From contig CM000155.2 of assembly GCA_000004695.1 (NCBI GenBank), positions 1,568,001-1,632,000 on the forward strand: a stretch of DNA of 64,000 nt, read 5' to 3'. The translations under genes and the position numbers were made by a program. The stretch is from Dictyostelium discoideum. Taxonomy: Eukaryota. Under the pieces are notes generated by a model that did not search any database, was not told the DNA's origin, and worked only from the letters and a program-made list of their open reading frames with translations. Positions 25,747 to 64,000 of this stretch are shown here, one piece after another. Numbering within the stretch: position 1 is the first letter of the stretch; each line of letters starts with the position of its first letter.

Positions 25747-26763
25747 ATGGAATTACAGATTTTATCAAATTACTATGATTTTGAAACTCTATCTGGTCGA
25801 AAATTGAATATTTCACAAGAGAGTGGAGAAACTGTTGGAAATGTAAAAAAAAGAATTGCTTCAATTTTTGGAAATGATGGAGAGATTGGAAGTGATGGTA
25901 GTTTTTATTTATTACATTATGGTAGAGAATTAAATGATGATGAAATTGTTAATCAATCTTTAATTGATAGTAGTGTGGATGGCGATGATAAATTAAGAGG
26001 AAATGGTAGTAAAAAGGATAATAATAATAATGGTAAACCAATTCAAATTCGTCGTAATAGATATAGTTGTTTTGCTGAACATATGATTAATGAGCATTTA
26101 GTAAAACCATGGTCAAAATGGATTGCTAGAATTTCTTGTATAATTTTTTCAGTGTTACTAATTGCATCATTGGCACAAATTTCATTTTACCTTCCACATG
26201 CTAAAAATGTACCAGTAACATTTCAAACATTGGGTGTATTTGTAATGTCATCTTTATTAGGATGGAAAATGGGATGCTCCAGTATTATCCTTTACTTATT
26301 ATGTGGTCTTGCAGGTGCTCCATTCTTTACAAATCAGAACCATGGTGTAACTTATATGTATGGAAGTACTAGTGGTTACTTGTATGGTTTCATCGTTGCC
26401 TCTTTTATTGTTGGATTTTTCGCCGAAATGGGTAGTGATAGAGCTTATATCTTTAATTGGAAATCCACTTTGTTTTCAATGATATTTGCAAATATTGCCA
26501 TTTACATTATTGGTATTCCTGTTTTAGCTATTAAAATTGGTTGGATAAAATCATTCAAATTAGGTTTACTTCCATTTTTAGTTGGTGATGCACTTAAAAT
26601 AATTATTGCAACAATTATAATTCCATCAATTTGGAAATTCATTGCATTTCTCTCAAATAAGCGTATAATTATTAAATCTCCAACAATTAAAGATATTTTA
26701 TCTTCTTCACAATTAAAAAATGATAAAACTTCAATTGAACTAAATAATATAAACTCACAATAA
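25747..26763 (+). CDS. ubiquitin-like domain fused to a BioY-family (bacterial ECF-type) biotin transporter membrane domain
   Basis: Residues about 130-300 (NVPVTFQTLGVFVMSSLLGWKMGCSSIILYLLCGLAGAPFFTNQNHGVTYMYGSTSGYLYGFIVASFIVGFFAE…LLPFLVGDALKIIIATIII) align along their length with bacterial BioY (…PVTLQTL…LG…G…LY…LG…GLPVFAG…GPTGGYL…). The N-terminal about 75 aa (MELQILSNYYDFETLSGRKLNISQESGETVGNVKKRIASIFG…FYLLHYGRELNDDEIVNQSLID) has a ubiquitin beta-grasp pattern. Single ORF, ATG at 25747. Confidence 0.7.
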   Translation: MELQILSNYYDFETLSGRKLNISQESGETVGNVKKRIASIFGNDGEIGSDGSFYLLHYGRELNDDEIVNQSLIDSSVDGDDKLRGNGSKKDNNNNGKPIQIRRNRYSCFAEHMINEHLVKPWSKWIARISCIIFSVLLIASLAQISFYLPHAKNVPVTFQTLGVFVMSSLLGWKMGCSSIILYLLCGLAGAPFFTNQNHGVTYMYGSTSGYLYGFIVASFIVGFFAEMGSDRAYIFNWKSTLFSMIFANIAIYIIGIPVLAIKIGWIKSFKLGLLPFLVGDALKIIIATIIIPSIWKFIAFLSNKRIIIKSPTIKDILSSSQLKNDKTSIELNNINSQ

Positions 26764-42861: not shown

Positions 42862-44672
42862 TTAATGAGAAACTATAATTGGTTTTGAATTTGGATCAAA
42901 TTTAAAAGTTAATTTCTTCCAGAATAATAAAACTATACCCATATCGAAAACCCACATTGAAATTAATACAATGAAAAGTGGTAGACGTCTTATCATTGAT
43001 AAACCATAACCAGCCCAAAGCGGACCAAGAATTCTAGCAAGACTACCCATAATCATCATACAACCACTTAGGAAACCTTGAGATTCTTCTTCACCATAGA
43101 TTCTATTCAATAGTTTAGAATAAAGACTATAGACTGAAGTATTTTGAGTTGGAATACCAACAGTAGTGATTGCAACCGATAAAATGAATTTCCACATTGG
43201 TACACTATCAGTTGCCAAACCAAGTCCAAAGAAGAACATCATCAATATTAAACCAGCACCAATGAATAACATACCAAACATGATTGCATGTTTATCTTGT
43301 CCACCTTTACCTGTGAATATAACTGTAACAATAATGAAAACTATGATTTCCAATGACACCAAACTATACATAATACTATTTTGAATTGTACCAAAACCAT
43401 ACTGTTGTTGAGTGATTGGTGTAATTAAAGTTTCAAGTGAACCAAATACAAAATTTTGCACAAAATTAATTACAAAACATGTCAATAGTGATGCATTTAA
43501 TATCTTTTTTAAATTTTCTAAAAATGTTGGTTCTTTTTTCTTTTGATCAGCACCAAATAATCTTGATTGATGAATTGAACCACCATTTGATGAAGAGGTT
43601 TGATATTTTGAAAATTTTTTACTTGAAAAATGTTGAAATGATGATTGTGGTGTAATCATGGTAGTTGATAATGATTCACCACCATTTCCATTTAAACCTT
43701 TTGGATTAACCATTCTATATGTTAATGATCCTTCCTCTCCAAATGTTGGATATTTACTATATGTTGAATATTGTTGATTTATACTATGCTTATAGTCTCC
43801 ACCCAATGTAACTTCTGAATATTTATCTAATGCATGTGGATGGCTTGTACTTTTATGTAATAATGGTGCTTTTTCATTACTTTTAAATTTAGATGATGAA
43901 ATATGTTGTTGTTTTTCATTTATATCAATTTTAGATACTTGATCAATATTAGTTTGATTATTATCTTGATTATCAATTATTGGAGTTGGTTCTCTGAATC
44001 CAATGAATGATAATAAAATTAAGAATAAAAATAATGCTAATAACCAACCTGGTGTTCTTAATGGATCGAAAATGAAATGAACTTTACCAATCCAAAAATT
44101 GAAATTAACTTCACCAATACCAAGATTAAATGCTGGACCTGCAACTAAACCAAATGCATTGATACCATTGATTATACCCATAAATTTGGTTCTTTGCTCT
44201 TTGGTACTGACTGCTGCAATGTAACTATTGGTTAATGCCATATTACTACTACCGATACCTGCTATGAAACGACCTGCAATCACCATATATGGATCGATTG
44301 CCATTGCATAAACTATATTACCAATTACACCAACTATTAAACTTGCTATAAAACTTTCTTTCATTGTTCTTTTGTCTGCCCAAATTCCAACAATTGGTAA
44401 AAAACAAACTTGTGCTATTGAAAATACTGCTAATGCCCACCCCAATGAATTACTATTACCATTGATTGATTCTAAATATTTTAATAATGATGGCATTACA
44501 ATACCATATTCAACATTTGCCACAAATCCAATTATCATAACTGTTGTTAAACTTAACATGTGGACTCGATTTTCTGTTTTTTCATTTGATATTTCCACTT
44601 TTTCATCTTTTACTGATACTTTTTCTTCTTTATTTATTATTAAAATTGAATCATTACTATTATTATTTTCTA

Positions 44673-44676
<4 letters not shown>
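42862..44676 (-). CDS. mfsd8: major facilitator superfamily transporter, MFSD8/CLN7 homologue; single exon
   Basis: 12-TM MFS layout. LGWALAVFSIAQVCFLPIVGIWADKRTMKESFIASLIVGVIGNIVYAMAI…YMVIAGRFIAGIGSSNMALTNSYIAAVSTKEQRT aligns with human MFSD8 [48 protein letters not shown]…[33 protein letters not shown]. C-terminal …MGSLARILGPL aligns with …SGSGARILGPM. ATG at 44676. Confidence 0.75.
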
Positions 44677-50395: not shown

Positions 50396-51731
50396 AAGGA
50401 TCAATACGTACGGATGCCCGCGAACGTCAATAGTGAACAGGTGGTACAATGGCCAAAGGATCAACAGGATTTTCTAATTAAAAATAAGGTACCGTTGGAA
50501 AGGATATGGAATTTGGACGAAACAGCAATAAAACTTGATGAAACTGCAGTTAAGGTAAAAGTATTAAACTTACAACCATTTTTTTAAGTAATATATTACA
50601 ATATATCATTCATATTAATTAATAAAATTCTTTGAATATTTTGATTATAGTATGTTGTAAACAAAAGTTTAGGTAAACCATTGACAAAACCACTCAACTA
50701 TTCCCAACATGTCACCATGATTGGGTGTATATCGGCGAGTGGTCGCCGTTTACCTCATTACTCAATTATAAAGGCACCAAAGACATCAATTGGCAATATA
50801 ACAATTCATACCCAAGGGAATATAATATTTAATGAGTCAGGATGGGTTGACACCAAACAAAAAGTAGATTTCATTAAGTATTTTGGTGATTCAATAAACA
50901 GAGGTCTAACCAAACCTTATCCATTAACTGTTTTATACTTGGACAATCATTCATCAAACTTACAAGAAGAAGTTGCAGATGCCTTGAATGAATATAATAT
51001 TCATTGTTATACGTTTCCAGCTAACTCAACTCACTTATTGCAACCATTGGATTTATTGGTTTTCGGTATTTTCAAAAGAAAGTTGAACCAGACCATTAAT
51101 AATTTAAAAAGGGTTAAATCCAAAAAGGATATACCCAAAACAAGCTAATTATCATTTGAGGAATTATTGGACGTAATAGAAACATCATGGGATGCTACTG
51201 CTTCACCAATTACTATTAAGAATGCTTTTGAAATGATTAAAATAGATTGGAAATCGATAAAAGCATCTTATTTGGATGAATTGGAAAATAATGACGATAA
51301 ATCTTTAGCATGTGTTTCCAATACTTTAGTTATAAATGAAAAACCCTCTTCAACCCAAATAGCAGATGCAAGAAAGATTGGGTTCCAAATTAACAGTTTG
51401 GGTGTAGGGTAGGTAAGAAAAAATAAAATCTATAAATTACTATTATTATATACTAATTTTTTAATTTTAAAATCACAGAAATACAATAAAAATAGATGAA
51501 GCACCAAAAAAAAGAGGTAGACCATCAAAGGTTACTATTAATTCAACTGTAAATGTTTTAAATGTCAATATCCAAAACAATTTTAATATACCAATTACCG
51601 ACTTTTCATCACCTGTGTTAAAACTTAACAAAAATGGCCAACCAAGAAAAAAATATACTAAAAAATTAAAGGCCATTCATGATAGTACAATAAATCAACA
51701 GAATTCAAACAAAATCTCTGAAATTGATTAA
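50396..51731 (+). mobile_element. 5'-truncated remnant of a pogo/Tigger-like DNA transposon. DDE_1 transposase ORF in 3 exons (about 50396..50554, 50651..51408, 51478..51731) with an in-frame TAA at 51146-51148.
   Basis: Translation …VPLERIWNLDETAIKLDETAVK|YVVNKSLGKPLTKPLNYSQHVTMIGCISASGRRLPH…LTVLYLDNHSSN…YTFPANSTHLLQPLDLLVFGIFK… has the DDE_1 signature (N-DE-T … LLLDN…SH … PPNST..LQPLD). It is followed by the typical …AWD…I.NAF… region and a C-terminal KKRGRPSK basic tail. The N-terminal CENP-B/HTH region is missing (reading frame opens only at 50396). Introns at GTAAAAG (50555) / AG (50649-50650) and GTAGGT (51409) / AG (51476-51477). This block is far less AT-rich than its flanks. Confidence 0.6.
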
Positions 51732-52090
51732 TCTCCAATATTAATAAATAATAATAAATAAATAAATTATTTTTTTTCTCATATAAAATTTTAATTAAAA
51801 AAAATGTCGGTTGCAAAAAAAAAAAAAACTCGAAAAAAAATTGAAGGTAATAACCAATTTAATATTTAATCAATAACAATAAAATTAGAATAATTTAAAA
51901 AAATAAAATAAATTAAATTAAAATATCAATAACAATAAGATTAAATTATAAAAAAAAAAAGTGATATTTGAAAATATCTATAAAGGTGTCAATTTTGAAA
52001 AGTGATTAGAGATTTCAATTTAATCATCATTTGTTTTTTTTGGTTATTACTTAGATTAAAAAATAATTTGAATGATTATAAATATAATAA

Positions 52091-52103
52091 TTATTATTAT
52101 TAC

Positions 52104-52161
<58 letters not shown>

Positions 52162-52170
52162 TAATTTTTA
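52091..52170. repeat. (TAT)n microsatellite, intergenic
   Basis: Perfect trinucleotide run. Confidence 0.9.
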
Positions 52171-52627
52171 GTTATAATTAATGATCCAAAAAAACAGAAT
52201 CATTTCATTCATTTTTTTATATTTGATACAATAATTATACTTTTTTTAATTTTTTTTTTTTTTCATTTTTTTTTAATAACATGTAAATGGTATAATTTTA
52301 GTAAGATTATTTAAAAATACAAATGAAAATCAAAGACCACCATTACCAGAAAGAAAAGGGTGCTCCATTATTACCAAGATATGAATATATATAATTCAAA
52401 GAATATGATTATAATGAAGATGATGAAATTATTTATGTTTTATATAAAATATTTTACTTTTCCATTTAGTAAATTTTAAATAGGACATTTACCAAATAAA
52501 ATTTATAGATTTAATTTATTTAATTTTCTCATGTACATAAATAATCATATTTTATTTAAAAAGTTATTTTTATTTATTTATTTTAATAATTTATTTAATT
52601 AATAATAATAACAATAATAATAATAAT

Positions 52628-54628
52628 TTAACCCCATTGACTGGTTAATTCAATTAATAAACAAAAACTATCAGAATAATGACTATATTTATCTTGTTTA
52701 TATAAAGTATCTAAAGAGATGAATTTTGGCCAACCCCAAGCACTATCGAATCCTTCATCAAACATTTTCTTAAAACTAAATTCAATTGAATCTTGGAATC
52801 TAAACCCAATTACACTTGCCAAAACTGATATTGCTAATGGTTTTGTTAACTTACTACCAAATGCCAAATAAACAGCCAATTGACCTTTTTCTCTTTCCTT
52901 TAATTGAACGAAAAACTCTCTATCCTTGAATGAGAATCTCTCTAAATTTGCTGGTAATTTTATATCCTTTTTAATTCTATATAAAAATTGATTAGTTGAT
53001 TGACCAAATTCTGATGAAAATGAATTTAATGGTATAATTTCATTTGTAACATTTGAATCAAATGGTTGAGCTTTTTAAAATAAAATTAAAAAATTAAAAA
53101 ATTTTAATAATAAAATGAATAAATAAAAAAAAAAAAAAAAAAACTACTTACTAATACCTAATAAAAATTCAATTGGATAGGGTCTTTTTCTATTATTACG
53201 TGGTCTTCTATAATGGTAACCTAAAAATGAGAAACTTTCACCTCTATTTGATTTTAAAATATGTCTAAGAAGATTTGAAATTTCTTTATCTGGTATAATT
53301 TTTAAATTATCTAAACGTTCAAATGCTTCGCCGATATTCATATTTTCCCAACGAATTAGTGGTAATACTTCATCCAATAAATTCTTATCGATTGTTGTAT
53401 CCCAATCTTCAATGATATCTAAGTCATCCTTATTTGTTGAATATTCATAATCATCGTTTGCTGAATCATCTTTATCATCATCATCGGTGAAATCATCATC
53501 CTCATCATCATCTTCATCATCATCGTCACCATCTTCGGAATCATTTTCAAAATCATCGCCAACACCACCACCACCATTACGATGTTCTTCATCATCAATA
53601 TCACTATAGGTTTCTTCTGTATCGCTATGACAATCGTTGTTATTGTAATGACCACCACCACCACCACCATTACCAATGTGCTGTCTGTGGTGATCTTTTA
53701 ATGATAGAGAATTTCTTCTTGAACTGCATCTACTACTACAACTTCCATCGGATCCACCATCACCATCATGCTTTTTCAAATGTGATGAACTACTTCTTTT
53801 ACCATGACTTTTACCACTTGCACCATTTGCAGATTGAAGCTGTTGTTGCTGTTGCTGTTGCTGTTGTTGAATGGAAGCTTGTGAATTCTCTCTACACCAA
53901 TCTATAACACAATCTAATATATCCAATTCTTCCATCCTTAGACCATCATTACGTAACATTTGAACGAGTGTTGTCAAACTGATACTATAGAAAGCATCAC
54001 AATGTAATGAAATACTTGCATATTGTAGGACGAAAGCTCTTAAATGGGGGTGAACACTCTCGACTGGTATAGCACTTTGATTTAAAGAATCCCAAAGAAA
54101 AAGAGCACTTTCAACATCTGGTTTCTCTAGATACATTTGTGCGATTTTACCCATTGTTGCCAATGATAATTCTTTACCTCTTTGAAGACCCAAAAGATCG
54201 CAATACTGATAGATTGAACTCACCATCCTATGATCATAGTCTAAATCTAAAATTCCAATACAAATATATTTCAAAACGGTAAAAAACACATCAGGATCAA
54301 CACCCTCCAAGGTAATCTCTTTAATTGATGATTCTTTCATTGATCCAGTGAACATTGCTTTAAAGTACTCGCTTCTTGCCACTAACATTATCTTACTTGC
54401 AAAGAATTTCCTATCACCAACTTTAAATATTACATCACTAAACTGCGATGGTTGATCAGAATCCCCTAATAATATACCAAATGTATTGGTTAAATCTCTA
54501 GCTAATTTTATAATATCTTCATCTGTTCCATTACTATTACTATTGTTATTATTATTAGTATTATTATTATCATCAACACTTGAATTTAATGGATTTGGTG
54601 ATTTTTGATTATTAATATTTGATATCAT
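52628..54628 (-). CDS. BTB-BACK-PHR protein (BTBD1/2/3/6-like); exons 54628..53152 and 53070..52628; possible extra short 5' exon about 55128..54953
   Basis: BTB core FSDVIFKVGDRKFFASKIMLVARSEYFKAMFTGSMKESSIKEITLEGVDPDVFFTVLKYIC. BACK-like region. Long acidic/Gly insert. The last exon is PHR-like (FSFKDREFFVQLKERE…GFRFQDSIEFSF…GWPKFISLDTL). GTAAGT donor at 53151-53146 and AG at 53072-53071, phase 1. An AG acceptor sits immediately 5' of the 54628 ATG (tatAG|AAATGATA). It can be joined in frame to an upstream MEIEPVVRISFNGNN…PINQ mini-exon via a GTTAGT donor. This is speculative. Confidence 0.75.
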
Positions 54629-55969
54629 TTCTATAAATATAAAAATAATAAAAAAATATTAAAATTACATTAAAAAAAAAAAAAAAAAAAAAAAAAAAGT
54701 TGGACAAGTAATAATAAATTATTTATAAATTATAAATAAATAAAAAAAAAAAAAACAGTTAATATGTGGTTTTTTTTTTGTTTTGTTTTTAATTATTATT
54801 TTTATTTTTGTTTTGTTTGTTTTTTGTTTTTTGTTTTTTGTTTTTTTTTTAATTATTTATTTTTATTTTTTTTTTTATTTTATTTTTTTTTTTAATGTGG
54901 TGGGTTGTGTGTTGAAAAAAAAAAAAAAAAATAAATAAAAAATACTAACTTTGATTTATTGGTTTTTTTACACTAGGTTTATTGGTGCTATTAATGTTAC
55001 TACTATTATTGTTATTATTATTGTTGTTACTATTATTATTGGTGTTGTTGTTGTTGTTGTTGTTGTTGTTTTGATTATTATTTCCATTAAAAGATATTCT
55101 TACAACAGGCTCAATTTCCATTTTGAATTATTTGCAAATCCCACAAATAATTTAATAAATAAAAAAAATAAATAAATAATTTATTTTATATTATTCTAAT
55201 TAAATAAATTTTTTTATATTAAAAAAAAAAAAAAATAAAGAAAAAAAAAATAAGGAAAAAAAAAAAAAAAAATAATAAAGAAAATAAAAAATTATTTGTA
55301 ATGTTAATTTATATTAAATCAATAATTGAAAAATAAATATTTTTTATTTTTTTATTTTTTGGATAAATTAAAATAATTATGATAATATTAAATGCATATA
55401 AATAAATATATATATTTATAACTTTATAATAACAAGAATTATGATGACCCCACACAAAAAAAAAAAAAATTTAAAAAATCTGTTCATATAAAAAAAAAAA
55501 AAAAAAAAAAAAAAGAGAACAAATTGTTAGCACTGATTAGAGTGTGAGTGATTGAATGTATTTTTTAAAAAAAAAACTACTATTGTTTATGTTGGTTAAC
55601 ATTTTTGAGTATTGAAAAAATGTTGGAACCAATTATATTTATAGTTATAATTATAACTATCATTATTTAGTGTTTTGACATTTTTTTATTAATTTTTAAT
55701 TTTATCTTTTAATTTTATTTTTTGAAGGTGCCAAACTGTTTGGTATCCTTAAATTATTATTGTATTTAAAAAAACAATGAAACAATTTTGTGTGGGTGTA
55801 TTTAAAATTCAAAGAAACAATATTTTTTTAATTTTAAAATAAAAAAAATATAAAAAAAAAATATAAAAAAATAAAAAAATAAAAAATAAAAAATTAAAAG
55901 TATAATTAAAATAAAAAAAATAAAACAAACCTTTAAAACTTTTTATTTATTGTATATGAAATTATTTAA

Positions 55970-56004
<35 letters not shown>

Positions 56005-56702
56005 AAAAAAAAATATTGTTTTGGATTATATATATATATTAAATACCTAATGAATCAAAATAATCAATTTTTTTATTTTTATTTTTAATTTTAATTCTTT
56101 TTTTTTGTTGGGGTGTGATGAGGTTGGAATTTTATTTGTGTAATTTTTAACACAAAACTGTTTTTTTTTTTTAATTTTCCTAGTCACTTTTTTTTTTTTT
56201 TTTTTTTTTTCTTTTACATAACCCCGTCCATTAATGGTTTGTCAGTGAATATATTATTGAGAATGGAGGTATAATATGTAAATATTGTTTATTTTTTAAA
56301 TTTTATATTTCTTTTTTAAAATTATTATTATTATTTATGTTATTATTTTTAATATATTATTATTTATAAACAAATTGGTGGAGATAATTAATAATAGTTA
56401 TTGATAGTAGATCTATAAAAAAAAAATGTGTATGTACAAGTGATGTATTTCCTTTATTTTTTATTTTTTATTTTTTATTTTTATTTTTTGTTTTTTGTTT
56501 CCATTTTTTTACTTTTTTTAAAAATCTAAAAACAATTGCATGTCAAAATAATAAAAAAAAAAAAAAAAAATAAATAAAAAAAATAAAATATAATAAAATA
56601 AAAGTTCCTCTTTGTTTACATACCAAATTTGATTGAATTTTGATAATATATTTAATATATTAAATATATTAAATATTATTATATATTAAAATATAATAAT
56701 TG

Positions 56703-56738
<36 letters not shown>

Positions 56739-56753
56739 ATAACATAATTATAC

Positions 56754-56785
<32 letters not shown>

Positions 56786-57032
56786 TTGTATAATATTTAT
56801 ATTCAAAAAAAAAAAAAAAAAAAAAAAATTATATAATTGTATAATATTAATTCAAAAAATGTGTGGGTGAGGGGCAATAAGTGGGGGTTTTAGTTAACTG
56901 CTTACCAAAATGAATTCATTTCCAAAGTTGAAATTAGTGACCACCCTATGTAGTTTTTACATATATTATAATATAGATTTAATCAATTGAAATGGATTTT
57001 ATTTAACAGTTTAATTATTGCTAATTATTTTT

Positions 57033-57044
<12 letters not shown>

Positions 57045-57128
<84 letters not shown>
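57045..57128. repeat. (AAT)n microsatellite, intergenic upstream of TPR gene
   Basis: Perfect trinucleotide run. Confidence 0.9.
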
Positions 57129-57129
<1 letters not shown>

Positions 57130-57547
57130 GTAATTTTTGAGATCAAAACATTTATGCTATATTAGTAAATTACTCTGATTTTTTATTTTTATTATTATAA
57201 GTAATTTACTTTGATCTTTTATATTTAAATTTCCCATTCATTTTTTTTTTAAATTTTCCATTTTTTTTTTTATTTTTTTTGTTTTTAAACAAAAAAATAG
57301 ATGGAAAAAAGAAAAAAAAAATGAAAAAAAAAAATGAAAAAATTTAATTTTTTTTTTTGAAAAAAAAAAAAAAAAAATTCAAAATTCAAAATCATTTCGA
57401 TATCAAAGTAATTTATTCAAATAAATAAATCAAACAAATTATCTGTCTGTACATATATATACATAAATAAATATATATACATTTTATCAAAAAAAAAAGT
57501 ACATCTTCTTTAGTTTTTATTTAATAAACACAATAAAAAAAAAAAAA

Positions 57548-57971
57548 ATGGGAAAATCAAAAAAGAAAGTTATACCAACTTCTAATAAAGAACCGAAGAA
57601 ATCAACATCATCACAACAACAACAACAACAGCAACAACAACAGTTAACACCACAACAAGCTCAACAATTGCAACAACAACAAATGCAACACCAACAACAA
57701 ATTCAATACGCACAACAACAATTGCAACAAGCACAACAAATACAACAAGCACAACATCTTCAAATGCAACAAACCTCTCAAAGATTAGCACAACAAATCC
57801 AACAAATTCAACAAAAGAAAATTTCAATTAATCTAGATAACCTTGATAAAAACTTTTTATCTTTAAATTTAGATGCATTAAAACATTCTCAAAATCAAGC
57901 AAATGGTATATTCAGTTCATCATCCTCGTCAAATAAAAATACTAAAAATAAGAATAAAAATAATAATAATA

Positions 57972-58002
<31 letters not shown>

Positions 58003-60181
58003 TAGCAATAATAACAGTGGCAATAACAATAGTAGTAATAATAGTAATGATAAAAATAATAATAATAATAATAATAATAGCGGTAGTTCAGATGATAATG
58101 GACCAAAACAAAAGACATTCATGGGTGACGTTCCATTGAGTGCTTTGTATTCATTTAGAAATGGTAATAATGAATATTATAATGAACGATATAAAAATGC
58201 AGTTGAACATTATAATACTGCAATATCATTATCATCTTCAAAAATTCCAACATTTTTAGTTGTAGTTTTAATTAATAGATCAATTACTAAATTAAAATTA
58301 CAAGTAAGTAGTATATACATAATATTATATCTGTTTTATTTTTATTTTTATTTTTTTTTATTGTTTTTTTTTTTTTTATTCTTTCATATTATTCATACTC
58401 ACACTATTATTTTTAATTTATTTTTTATAAAAGGAATATAAAAGATCAATTTTAGATAGTACATTAGCAATATCTATTCAGCCAAATTGTATTAAAGCAT
58501 ACATTTGTAGATCATTTGGATACTTTTTCTGTAAAGACTATAAGAAAGCATTTGCGGATCATTTAATTGCCACAAATTTAGCACCTCATAATCTTACACT
58601 TCAAAAAGTAATGAGATATGCACATGGTTCTTTATCAATGTTTAATGCTGATTTCTTTGATTATTCTTTAAATAATTTAGCAAAAATGTAAGATATATAT
58701 AAATTATTAAGATTTATTTATTTATTTTAAAATGATTTATTCTAATAAATATATTTTACTTATATAAATATAGAAAAAGTATACAATTAGAATGGTTAAG
58801 TGATTTTAATTTATTATCAATTGAAGAGGAACCAGGTAGAATGCATTTATTAGTTAAATATATGAAAGATTTAATAATAAGAACTAAAGATAATCCACAT
58901 CAACAAGGACCACAACAACAATTCATTAATCAATCATTACAGGCAGCACACCAACAATCACAAATTCTAACTCAAAATCCAGGTATAATACCACAGGCAT
59001 CATTACAACAAACACAAATTCAAAATTGTAGAAACACAAGTTCAACACCACCCTCATTAATACCATCAGGCGAATTCACTACTCGTACCTCTTGGAATGA
59101 TCTCGAAGAGTATTATTCCCTCTTTAGGCATCCACAAAGTGAAGTATTGGCTTCAAAACAAAAACTTTTAGGTAATGCTGATTTTCAAGAAAAAAGGTAT
59201 GAAGCTGCATTAAGTCATTATTCAAAAGCTATAAAATTAAATCCAGAGTATGTATTTTTTTAAAAAATATTTATAAATATTTATAAATTTTGTTATTTAT
59301 TTTTTTATTTATTAATTTTAATTTATTTTGTATAAAAAAAAAAAAAAAATAAGTGATTCTATTTATTACTCTAATAGAGGTATTGTATATTATAAATTAA
59401 ATAGATTTTATGAAGCAATTACAGATTGTACAATGTCAATTGAAAAACAAGCTAAACAATTTAAAGCCTATTTAAGAAGGGGTTCATCCTATGCAGCTAT
59501 TGGTGATTATGCAAATGCCATTATAGATTTTAAAGCTGGTTTAAAATATGAACCAGAAAGTATAGATTTAATTGATGGTTTATATAAATCATTGAAATGG
59601 ATTGAAAATGATTTAAGAAAAAGAATAGCTTCTTCTTCTTCTCCTTCTTCTACTACTAATAATACAAACTCAACAACTACTACAACTACTACAAATAATA
59701 CTACTACAATAACTCCAAATAATACAAGTTTTTTAGAATTATCTTTAAAAACCGTCAATTTTGAATTGTCTTTAATTGCTGCGAAATTAAATTCAACAAA
59801 GAATTCACAAATTGATCCAAGTCAATTACCTTCAACAACAACAACAACAATAAATAATAATAGTAATAATAATAATAATAATAATTTAAATAATAATAAT
59901 ATCAATAGTAATAATACAACAACAGCACAACCAATATCTTCAACAAATTCACCATTTTTATCACAACCAATTACAAATAATCCACCACCATCATTATCTA
60001 AAAATTTTCATGAGAAAATTTTACAAGAAAAAGATAAACAAAAGGAGAAAGAAATAGAAAAAGAAAAAGAAAAAGAAAAAGAAAAAGAAAAAGAAAAAGA
60101 AAAAGAAAAAGAAAAAGAAAAAGAAAAAGAAAAAGAAAAGGAAAAAGAAAGAGAAAAGGAAAGAGAAAAAGAAAGAGAAAG

Positions 60182-60212
<31 letters not shown>

Positions 60213-60836
60213 AGAGCAATGGAATCAGAATTAGAAGAAAGGGAGAGAGAAAGAGAAAAACATGTAAATAAAAAACAAAAACATACACATAAACAACAAC
60301 AACAACAATCACAACAACCACAGGAACAATTATCACCACCAACATCAAGACCACCAACACCACCAACAACACCTTCATCACCAACATCTGGATCACCACC
60401 ATCACCACCACCACAATTTTCATCATCATCAACAACAACATCAACACCACCATTAACACCACCATTAACACCATCATCATTTGCAACATCACAATCATTG
60501 AATTCAATTGATTCATATAAGAAAATAGCATGCTTTAGACCTATAACAGCAGAACAAAAGAATAAGCTAGAGTCATTGGTAAACTATTTAACAGATTTAA
60601 TCACTGATGAAATTGGTGACCCTTCTTTAATTTTATTCTCAAGAGCTGAAGCCTATTCTCAATTAAGAGACTACATATCTGCTTTTAGAGATTTTGAAAT
60701 TGCAACTCATTTAAATCAAAAATATACTGATATTCCAAAACGTCATCAAAGATTAAGACAAATAATAAAAGAAGATCAAGAACAAAGAAAACAACTTAAT
60801 AATCTAATTTATCACCATCCCCAAAGTCATCTTTAA
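57548..60836 (+). CDS. TPR-repeat protein with poly-Gln N-terminus, N/S-rich linker and (EK)n tract; exons 57548..58303, 58434..58687, 58774..59247, 59354..60836 (about 988 aa)
   Basis: Spliced TPR blocks …GDVPLSALYSFRNGNNEYYNERYKNAVEHYNTAISL…KLKLQ|EYKRSILDSTLAISIQPNCIKAYICRSFGYFFCKDYKKAFADHLIATNLAPHN… and …GNADFQEKRYEAALSHYSKAIKLNPE|DDSIYYSNRGIVYYKLNRFYEAITDCTMSIEKQAKQFKAYLRRGSSYAAIGDYANAIIDFKAGLKYEPES. Donors GTAAGT (58304), GTAAGA (58688), GTATGT (59248). Acceptors 58432-58433, 58772-58773, 59352-59353. Phases 0,2,2 consistent. The ORF-track entries 57548, 58841 and 59328 are pieces of this gene. Confidence 0.7.
60055..60165. repeat. (AAAGAA)n hexanucleotide repeat, coding (EK/KE)n then (ER)n in TPR gene
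   Basis: aaagaaaaagaaaaagaa… then gaaagagaaaga. Translates to EKEKEK…EREKER. Confidence 0.9.
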
Positions 60837-60898
60837 AAATAAAAAATAAAAAATAAAATAAAATATCAATAGATTATTTAAAAATAATAATAATAATG

Positions 60899-60953
<55 letters not shown>

Positions 60954-60969
60954 TAATAATAATAATAAA

Positions 60970-62506
60970 CTATTTATATTGGTTGAAACAAACTAACCAA
61001 TATAAAAAAAAATAAGAACAAATCAGATAAAATTTTATTTTTACTTTTTTTTTATTTTCTATTTTTATGAGATATCTTTTCCAACCAAAGATATTTTTAT
61101 TGCTATTACATTTACCTTTAAGGTTATTAGTCTCTCCAAAATTCTTTCTTATAGTGTATAAATCATATTGAACCAAAGATGAATCATAAGAGTGATCTAC
61201 ATTTGCTTCATTTGGTGGTAGAGTTACTGATGGTCTTTGATTTATATGCCAACCTCTTAAAAAGTTAATTTTAATTGGTGGTTGTAATGACATTGAATAA
61301 GTAACACGAAATTCTGTTTCTCCAAAGAATATAATATCTTTAAATATTACTTTATTCCAAATACTATTTGATACTTTATCATTTAGATTTGATTGTTCAT
61401 TTCCATTATAGATACCTAATAATTTATCACTATTTAAAGATGCAATCGATGATCTTGATTGTAATGGAATAATGTGAATTGAACCTCCTTTAAATCTACC
61501 TTCAAATATATTTGATTCATAGAATGAATACTGTGAAGTTGAAATAATACCACTATTAATATAATCTATATTATCTGGATATTGTACTCTTGGCCCAACA
61601 GTACTGGTGTTTGAATAAAATGAAATGAATGCATTATAATTAATGTTGAATTGTTCAGTACCATATAATAATGAAATACCACTCATACTTAATCTATCTG
61701 ATTATTCTTTTAATACGAATGAATTACCAATGACATTACCAAATGAACGAATTGCTCCAATGAATGATCTTGGTGTTAAACTTTGTTGTCGAGTTCCTGA
61801 ATGAATTGCTGCTAAAAAACAATTATTTTCAATATTTACAGATTTTTTATTATGGTATAAAGTTATTGGATATCTATTTGGAATATTATTACTTTCATCC
61901 AATGGTGATGATGTTGTATGTCCAAAATCATAGAATACTGAATTTTTAATATCAACAGTTGATGAACCAGTGAAAACCATTGAACATTTACCAATACCCT
62001 GGATCCATACATTTTTATTATAAGGATTTATTAATATAAAACCAGTATCAGTACCTAAGGTTAAATCATAGGAATATTTATCAGTATTAGTTTCCTTCAA
62101 CATATCTGTGTAATAATTGTGCAACTTGTATTGTTCAGTACCATATACATCTTTTGAACCACCAAGTTTAATAATTGGCATTCTATCATTTGAGAATGGA
62201 AAGCTTCTAATGAATGTTGTTCTATTTGTTGTATCATAACCAGTCCATGTTGAACTTGAATCGAAACCTCTAATTGTAATATTACCATATATTGAAAGTA
62301 TTGATGGAATATTTGTTAAGGTAACTTTAGCAGCCTTTACACGATTTTTATCTAAACTGTAAAATTTATCACCAGTGTAATTTAAATTTGTACTTGTTGG
62401 ATAATAATTAATATTATATGATTCACTACCAAATTGGTCATAGACAATATTATTTATATTAACATCATATAATTGTCCACTTGAAACTTGTGAATTACAA
62501 TCTATT
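60970..62506 (-). CDS. probable secreted repetitive (beta-helix-like) protein whose reading frame is interrupted by a single in-frame TAA (61704..61702); upstream signal-peptide exon not resolved
   Basis: ORFs 61702..62181 and 60970..61686 are in the same frame, separated only by TAA + 15 nt. The frame is also open upstream of 62181 to an AG acceptor near 62507 (…taattaatAG|ATTGTAATTCACAAG). Composition N/S/T/G/Y-rich with repeated NIxIxN-type segments. Family assignment weak. Confidence 0.45.
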
Positions 62507-63230
62507 AATTATAATAAAAAACAAATTTAAATTAGTTAATAAGTGGTGGGTTTATTCTTTTAATTTCTATAATTTTATTATTTCAAAACAAACATTTAAA
62601 TAATATTGAAAGATTTAAAAGAAATATTAAAATAACTTTTCATTGTTTATTTTATTTTTTTATTTTTTTTTTTGAAGAAAATAAAAAGAAATAAATTTTT
62701 TCATTTTTATACTATTAATTTTTTTAGTTGATTTTTAGTAAGAGAAAAACATATGTATAATGATGGAATGGTGTGATATTTTTCATTACAAAAAATAATG
62801 CTTAAATCAGGAAAAAAAAAAATATCTTACTTTCAAGCTTAAAAATTTTGAACACAGTGGATTGATAAAAAATGCTTCTTTAAAGTTGGAATATGAAAAA
62901 TAAAAGGCAGAAAATCTGGAAATTTAAGATAAAAAAAAAAAACTAAAATTAAAAAAGATCTTTTTTCAACCAGACTTATTAAATTTTTAATTTTTTTTTT
63001 ATTTTAGTTTTATTTTTATATTTTTCATTGTCATTTTTATTTTTATTTTTATTTTATTTTTATTTTTATTTTTCTTTTTTCTTTTTGTTTCTATTAAAAA
63101 ATAAAATTATAAAATTTAGTTTTTGAATTTTTTTTTTTTTTTTAACTTATACCTTTTCACTAAAAATTTTTTATTTTTATTTTTTTTTTTTTTCATTTTC
63201 AAAAGATATCAATTCTCAAAAAAAATTAAA

Positions 63231-63843
63231 ATGGACCCTTTAGCCAATATTAAAAATGAAATAAATTTAATGAATCATAGAATTTCATCATTCGCTACTT
63301 ATGTAAATTATCAATTGTTAGAATTTAAACAGAGCATGTCAAATATTGGTGTGTAGTAAATAATAATTCAATTCTCAAGATTTTTTTTTTTTTTTTTTTT
63401 TTTTTAATTCCAAATCTTCACAATCATTGATTCTAACCTTTTTTTTTTTTTTTTTATTTTTTTTTTTTTTAATTTTTTCTGCAAATCAATGAAAATGATA
63501 ATTTCACTCAATGATTGATTAAAATAAATAATGTAAACAAAAAAATATATTTATTTTTTTAGAATTAATGTTACAAGAAAATATTGAATCAAAAAAAAAA
63601 ACAAAAACAGATACAGAACCAAATTCACCAACAAAACCACTTTCAACATCAATTCCAACTACAACAACAGCAGCAACTAGTCAATCAATCACTTCAACAA
63701 GTTTATCATCCTCCTCATCATTATCAAATCAAATTGCACAACCACCAATAATAAATGGACAGGTATTAAATTCTTCAATTTTAACTCCAACATCAAGAAA
63801 AAAACTTTCATTAGTTGACATAGATAAAAACAATTATAATAAC

Positions 63844-63940
<97 letters not shown>

Positions 63941-64000
63941 TAACAACAACAGATAAAAAAGAAGGAGAAAAGAATGAAAATGAAAATGAAAATGAAAATG
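63231..64000 (+). CDS. 5' part of a gene running off the window: exon 1 63231..63348, intron 63349..63562, exon 2 63563..>64000; S/T/N-rich protein of unknown function
   Basis: ATG at 63231 (MDPLANIKNEINLMNHRISSFATYVNYQLLEFKQSMSNI). GTGTGT donor at 63349. tttttttAG acceptor at 63561-63562 restores frame (G+AA). The downstream frame stays open through the (AAT)n-encoded poly-Asn to position 64000. Confidence 0.5.
63841..63940. repeat. (AAT)n coding poly-Asn in terminal partial gene
   Basis: Perfect trinucleotide run in frame with exon 2. Confidence 0.85.

Follow-up and report, generated by a model that had tools for sequence, protein, structure and literature searches.

Two long open reading frames (ORFs) on the minus strand of Dictyostelium discoideum AX4 DNA, kept apart by one in-frame TAA, are very probably the remains of a single gene. 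We analyzed a stretch of 64,000 nucleotides (the window) and conclude with high confidence that the region is an unprocessed, intron-retaining, duplication-derived pseudogene of a family of secreted proteins with a divergent G8 domain and a β-helix. It is homologous to a family with intact members (P0018 and P0019) and carries several disabling lesions. Intron 1 is kept in its ancestral position, and synteny with the orthologous locus of a cryptic sister species extends to both sides, consistent with an unprocessed copy. Including the TAA there are at least five lesions, of which three would each have been enough to disable the gene. The coordinates are collected in Table 1.

Table 1. Features of the pseudogene and its neighbours, numbered along the forward strand of the window.
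Feature	Position	Strand	Remarks
DDB_G0292424 (BioY)	25747-26763		Exact protein match, AX4
DDB_G0292432 (MFS)	42862-44676		Exact protein match, AX4
triA/trishanku (XP_629612)	52628-55121		Exact protein match, AX4; chromosome 6
TPR gene	57548-60836	+	~980-988 aa; tail-to-tail with the pseudogene
Read-on into former 3' flank (NKNIFGWKRYLIKIENKKKVKIKFYLICSYFFLYWLVCFNQYK)	60970..61099	-	Fortuitous TAG at 60972-60970; not ancestral coding
Downstream ORF	60970..61686	-	238 aa; same frame as the 159-aa ORF
C-terminal deletion junction	61100..61103	-	Alignment with the orthologue (L001)
Exon 2 after the stop	61103..61701	-	Homologous to second β-helix half; open frame
ATG of downstream ORF	61686-61684	-	Internal Met of the ancestral protein
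Spacer, 15 nt	61701-61687	-	Between the TAA and the ATG of the downstream ORF
In-frame TAA	61702..61704	-	C-to-A transversion in a Ser codon; codon comparison with orthologue and paralogues
Upstream ORF	61702..62181	-	159 aa; start is an incidental internal ATG at 62181
Exon 2 before the stop	61705..62501	-	Homologous to family N-terminal region and first β-helix half; open frame
G8-domain deletion junction	62311..62313	-	Comparison with L001, L002 and L006
Intron 1 remnant, 92 nt	62502..62593	-	Kept at ancestral position; acceptor AG at 62503-62502
Exon 1 remnant	62596..62643	-	ATG at 62643-62641; alignment with L001 and L002
SDRLSMSGISLLYGTEQFNINYNAFISFYSNTSTVGPR			Example peptide of the locus

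A single TAA interrupts a long open frame

The minus strand around the stop reads ...GTA TTA AAA GAA TAA TCA GAT AGA TTA AGT ATG AGT GGT.... As the initial annotation had described, two ORFs lie in the same frame with a TAA and 15 nt between them, and their common frame has no stop upstream until 62505. With the local composition, the probability of a stop is 0.09 per codon and that of finding at most one stop in 511 codons is 6e-20, indicating that the region is coding now or was until recently. The two remaining frames of the same strand contain 34 and 78 stops. A Pfam search with both window ORFs gave no family match.

No credible intron removes the stop, in agreement with the initial annotation. 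All the frame-preserving GT..AG pairs that span the TAA are 23-84 nt long and would excise conserved coding sequence, the flanking residues being encoded contiguously in the homologues. An intron-interrupted gene was rejected on the length of these pairs and on the intervening codons kept by the homologues.

A homology search with the conceptual readthrough product returned at least three Dictyostelium proteins of 65-73% identity that span the stop, and all three have Ser at its position. The word-indexed protein search is incomplete, as the BTB region of triA gave no match in it although triA is present, and few matches in it do not equate to absence; with the TPR neighbour as query it was dominated by low-complexity words. 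At the codon level, the window has GAA TAA TCA, the orthologue from the cryptic sister species GCA TCA TCA, and two paralogous copies (L002 and L003) both GAA TCT TCA. The intact P0018 shows AAT-TCA where the window has the TAA. The paralogue comparison that the initial annotation had put forward as a check thus returned Ser in both cases. With TCA in the orthologue and TCT in the paralogues, the TAA is a single C-to-A change in a Ser codon. The change arose on the AX4 lineage, later than the split from the cryptic sister species. The stop corresponds to about residue 383 of P0018, which lies in a loop joining β-helix coils in the predicted model.

An error in the reference sequence or its assembly, with a sense codon as the true reading, was one option of the initial annotation. 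It has the prior plausibility of any single-base difference and nothing more in its favor. We compared the window with the triA-bearing locus (L005) of GCA_054883475.1, an AX4-like assembly and the only further one with the exact triA sequence, in which L005:2491-4164 corresponds to window 62643-60970. The two are identical over these 1674 nt, TAA included. Across window 52000-64000 (12 kb) there are 0 mismatches and 4 indels, all of them in intergenic homopolymers of at least 12 nt. The independent assembly therefore reproduces the gene region and excludes a sequencing error for the AX4 lineage, leaving the error reading next to no chance. In a benchmark against the AX4 reference there were no assembly errors beyond homopolymers of at least 12 nt. 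The assemblies compared here are probably Nanopore-only (10.1101/2025.10.22.684067), and for this reason single-base frameshifts in the orthologue (L001) and in L003 carry some risk of error.

It is also very improbable that the region holds two independent small genes of 159 and 238 aa with their own starts, or a truncated neo-functional fragment. Both ORFs do start at an ATG, and for an AT-rich genome they are long. Both ATGs, however, are internal to the ancestral protein. The Met that starts the 159-aa ORF is Met in the orthologue and Leu in the paralogues, and the one that starts the 238-aa ORF is M274, invariant among the relatives and found within ...MSGISLLYGTEQ... (...MSGISLLYG...). 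The 15 nt between the ORFs leave no space for a promoter, and each ORF is predicted to encode an incomplete slice of the β-helix without a signal peptide. When both ORFs were looked up as gene products across the annotated assemblies, neither was on record. To arrive at 461 aa, the sole automated model at this place has to combine a 7-nt first exon with a pseudo-intron of 23-84 nt in conserved codons.

The gene is damaged at both ends

The initial annotation had treated the TAA as the sole defect of an otherwise intact gene. This did not hold, as four of the lesions lie beyond the region around the stop that it had described. The first is a frameshift in exon 1, caused by the loss of 8 nt (ATTATTTT) between 62629 and 62628. 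From the ATG to AATATTTC/TTTATTTC the distance is 23 nt in both the orthologue and L002 and 15 nt in the window. The frame of the window ATG reads MKSYFNISFKSFNII and terminates at a TAA at 62598-62596, while the hydrophobic core of the signal peptide, ILIFLLNLSILFK, sits in a different frame. No other upstream ATG in the window restores the signal-peptide frame. The earlier description of the gene product as secreted is consequently right for the ancestral protein and fails for the window copy, in which the ATG and the signal peptide are in different frames.

The donor of intron 1 is GTTTGT (62593-62588) in the window as against GTATGT in the orthologue. Loss of the purine at +3 weakens a splice donor, and the window donor is probably weakened.

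At the G8 junction, 129 nt (43 codons, in frame) present in the orthologue are gone from the window. Besides these, ~190-215 nt (64-72 codons) of the paralogues L002 and L006 have no counterpart in either the window or the orthologue. At the other end of the gene ~1145 nt (L001 11651-12795) are missing, and with them the C-terminal ~310 codons together with the native stop. Here the coding sequence for ..NNLKGKCNS is joined to sequence that forms the 3' flank of the orthologue, and the orthologue flank AATAAAAATATCTTTGATTGGAAAAGATATC runs straight on in the window. The final ~44 'codons' of the 238-aa ORF are thus former 3' flank and fortuitous. In all, the window copy retains less than half of the ancestral codons. 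A functional product would not be expected from the locus, given that the start is out of the signal-peptide frame, the G8 domain is deleted, the helix is interrupted and the C-terminal third is lost. The locus is also probably not expressed.

In viruses and animals, programmed readthrough occurs in contexts such as UGA-CUAG and UAG-CARYYA. Programmed readthrough had been another option for the window, with the TAA decoded at a useful frequency to yield a fused 511-aa product. We find it hardly credible. There is a single stop with the same frame open on both sides, and readthrough on eRF3 aggregation has been suggested, speculatively, for Dictyostelium (PMC11537047). The stop is not conserved, however, with Ser codons in the orthologue and paralogues, and of the stop codons UAA is the least leaky (PMC7783166). 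The +4 base is U, no known readthrough motif was found after the stop, and the 110 nt downstream, with a folding z-score of +0.93, give no RNA structure. The upstream ORF is without an in-frame start joined to the signal peptide, and the 'extension' terminates in the former 3' flank with ~310 codons lost. Constraint is moreover relaxed (ω ~0.5-0.8).

The orthologue and a paralogous locus are also decaying

The orthologue (L001) is from GCA_054859205.1, 'D. cf. discoideum', the cryptic sister species. Its DNA is ~88% identical to the window, and ~92% over the gene. Synteny on both flanks identifies it as the orthologous locus. It has two in-frame stops (GAA to TAA and AAA to TAA), two 1-nt deletions (one of them in a non-homopolymer context) and deletions of 3, 3 and 21 nt. 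None of these nonsense, frameshift and small-deletion lesions is in common with AX4. The orthologue is broken independently of the AX4 copy.

In L002 and L003 only the gene body matches (83%) and the neighbours are different; they represent a paralogous locus, locus B, with a TPR gene on one side and a FYVE gene on the other. In isolate ACTFIR (L002:10001-13477) a ~490-bp insertion divides locus B in two. In the AX4-like assembly (GCA_054883475.1, L003:10100-12600) it is truncated at the N-terminus and carries frameshifts, among them a 5-nt deletion. It is intact in GCA_054859145.1 (L006), with a 958-codon ORF. Both close family copies appear non-functional in AX4.

The G8-region deletion shared by AX4 and the cryptic species suggests that the locus of the pseudogene (locus A) was already impaired when these lineages separated. 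The in-frame deletion probably came first and would have relaxed selection, after which each lineage would have collected its own lesions independently. The TAA is an ordinary nonsense substitution that struck a copy by then close to neutral evolution. The open frames flanking it are still long because gene death is recent and substitutions have been too few to create further stops.

Constraint on the window copy is relaxed

The Nei-Gojobori dN/dS between the window and the orthologue is 0.54 for the target (dS 0.099), 0.16 for the TPR neighbour (dS 0.097) and 0.035 for triA (dS 0.103). At equal dS (~0.10), constraint on the window copy therefore seems relaxed relative to its neighbours. The numbers are also compatible with a fast-evolving gene that was still constrained until recently, dN/dS being 0.54 and not 1. 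We polarised the changes with L002 and L006 as outgroups and used ~3.75 non-synonymous sites per synonymous site. On the AX4 lineage there were 7 synonymous and 21 non-synonymous changes, or an ω of ~0.8 from a small count (28). The orthologue lineage had 9 synonymous, 23 non-synonymous and 2 nonsense changes, and its ω of ~0.7 likewise comes from a small count (32).

Stops are made by 6.4% of the possible point mutations in the ORF, and ~30 substitutions lead to an expectation of ~2 nonsense codons per lineage. The observed numbers, 1 on the AX4 lineage and 2 on that of the orthologue, fit this neutral expectation. One stop in a long open frame is the expected look of a young, neutrally drifting pseudogene. 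The nonsense pseudogene, listed as one option in the initial annotation, is strongly supported by the further lesions, the relaxed constraint and the Ser codon in the homologues.

The TAA, with or without the other lesions, could be a segregating null allele limited to the NC4/AX4 laboratory lineage, with a sense codon or an intact gene in wild isolates. The AX4-like assembly, the one other D. discoideum sequence compared at this locus, has 0 SNPs in 12 kb and is silent on wild variation, and all four AX4-specific lesions are younger than the split from the cryptic species. Pseudogenes of the tgr family in AX4 are also sometimes open in other strains (10.1101/2025.10.22.684067). We nonetheless consider this reading unlikely. 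The G8-region deletion is common to the cryptic sister species and ω is ~0.7-0.8 in both lineages, suggesting that the locus had lost its function before the diversification of D. discoideum. The four lesions that arose independently in a single lineage likewise suggest long neutrality and not one recent laboratory mutation. A segregating null allele would in any case concern only the spread of the lesions and is compatible with a pseudogene in AX4.

We see little prospect of a transcribed locus whose β-helix fragment, lacking a signal peptide, has taken on a new intracellular or regulatory role, whether as either ORF or as a low-level readthrough fusion (for example on eRF3 aggregation under stress). 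The same low probability goes for a milder variant, a presence/absence polymorphism in a rapidly turning-over, tgr-like surface family with the gene intact in wild isolates.

The family and its ancestral product

An exhaustive HMMER search gave 13 family representatives at 50% clustering, several of them of 950-1110 aa. P0018 (956 aa), from locus B of GCA_054859145.1, is encoded by the uninterrupted 958-codon ORF and exon 1. A D. discoideum isolate carries an intact copy of P0019 (1017 aa, ~45% identical). At the C-terminus, P0019 and P0020 have a Ser/Thr-rich stretch and a hydrophobic tail.

Pfam placed a G8 domain (PF10162) at residues ~105-214. In P0017 it scored 23.9 bits, above the gathering threshold of 22.9 bits. 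At the homologous position of P0001 (E = 0.014) and P0019 (E = 0.058) it fell below threshold. The predicted structure, a model of moderate confidence (pLDDT 68.5, pTM 0.73), has a right-handed parallel β-helix after the G8 domain. AF2 with a 5-sequence alignment gave no usable model (pLDDT 30). Neither Foldseek against the PDB (no match at E <= 1e-3) nor a profile search of PDB sequences found similarity to solved structures. Judged from sequence and predicted fold, the ancestral protein was probably a secreted protein of ~950-1020 aa with a signal peptide, a divergent G8 domain, a right-handed β-helix and C-terminal β domains.

The gene had also been called repetitive. This was not confirmed, as the N- and C-terminal halves match in BLASTP only at E = 0.11 through a short YGTEQ motif, and the periodicity is that of the β-helix coils. 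We found no significant paralogues within the window and no significant internal repeats of the gene.

In P0017 (1901 aa) two full-length copies are fused head to tail, and both have a G8 domain, a β-helix and C-terminal domains. Its makeup points to a dictyostelid genome with either a tandem duplication or a merged gene model.

Annotation of the locus and its neighbours

The automated annotation of GCA_054883475.1 places a 461-aa protein over the pseudogene (L005:2491-4164). In the reconstructions that we inspected, a 7-nt first exon is combined with a 23-84-nt 'intron' that runs through conserved codons and removes the TAA; there are 843 equally artificial solutions. As its length can be reached only with artificial micro-introns, the model is an annotation artefact. 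The locus is best annotated as a pseudogene rather than as one or two protein-coding genes.

Similar patchwork models cover decayed family copies in other assemblies (P0002, P0021, P0022, P0024, P0025 and P0027). Five of these, P0021, P0022, P0024, P0025 and P0027, were considered as alleles of this locus and rejected, since identity is at most 70% and over short stretches only; they are models of decayed copies elsewhere. Such patchwork models inflate the apparent size of the family.

Splicing of the TPR gene in the window uses canonical donors (GTAAGT, GTAAGA and GTATGT), is clean and yields 988 aa. The gene called at the syntenic place in the cryptic species has this length too. In the AX4-like assembly the TPR gene is called at 980 aa, which fits an alternative acceptor at 59378. 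The exact 988-aa reconstructions from the window and from the orthologous locus were looked up in the protein collection, and neither was present. The TPR gene and the pseudogene converge at their 3' ends, and the short space left between them is taken up by an (AAT)n/(ATT)n microsatellite of ~80 nt (window 60880-60960). Such microsatellites are the usual intergenic simple sequence of Dictyostelium. No literature match was found for the neighbouring DDB_G identifiers.

In AX4, triA and a pirin gene are separated by a DDE_1 (PF03184) transposase gene (window ~50430-51750; L005:13391-14708), and the matching interval is ~1.7 kb shorter at the orthologous locus. A different DDE_1 element is found just upstream of the target gene in the cryptic species (L001:7459-9314) and has no counterpart in the window. 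The DDE_1 elements that flank the pseudogene are lineage-specific transposon insertions.

Comparison with known systems

A by-product of this analysis is a small, uncharacterised dictyostelid family of G8/β-helix proteins (~1000 aa) whose close copies are intact or dead depending on the lineage. It may be modestly useful to those who study social amoebae and their lineage-specific surface proteins or polysaccharide-active proteins. The family, with its lineage-specific gene death, is the only mildly new item here and leaves current understanding unchallenged.

Like genes with programmed readthrough, the window copy has an in-frame stop with an open frame downstream. Unlike them, its stop is an unconserved UAA without stimulatory context or structure, and both ends of the gene are destroyed. 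Among β-helix adhesins and enzymes, PfbA (4mr0/3zpp), PL6 lyases, AlgG, GH28 and phage tailspikes resemble the predicted protein at only 7-16% identity. On the model, this resemblance would be one of fold and not of family membership. The architecture of the ancestral protein is similar to that of the CEMIP (KIAA1199)/TMEM2/PKHD1 type (PMC9704909). In contrast to that type, no GG domain was detected in the window family and the G8 similarity is marginal in most members. The window copy itself differs from G8/PbH1 proteins (PF10162) in that it is without any G8 segment.

The tgr genes are a birth-and-death gene family of D. discoideum with pseudogenes annotated in AX4 (bioRxiv 10.1101/2025.10.22.684067). 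The window family differs in its domains, a G8 domain and β-helix where Tgr proteins are Ig-like, and the diversifying selection and wild-strain polymorphism of tgr are not in evidence for it. In its form of decay, however, the window copy is like the unprocessed pseudogenes of tgr type: a duplicated member at a fixed position, with its intron kept and with nonsense, frameshift and deletion lesions. As in families of that type, other copies are intact or dead according to lineage, as seen at locus B in L006 (intact), L002 (split) and L003 (frameshifted).
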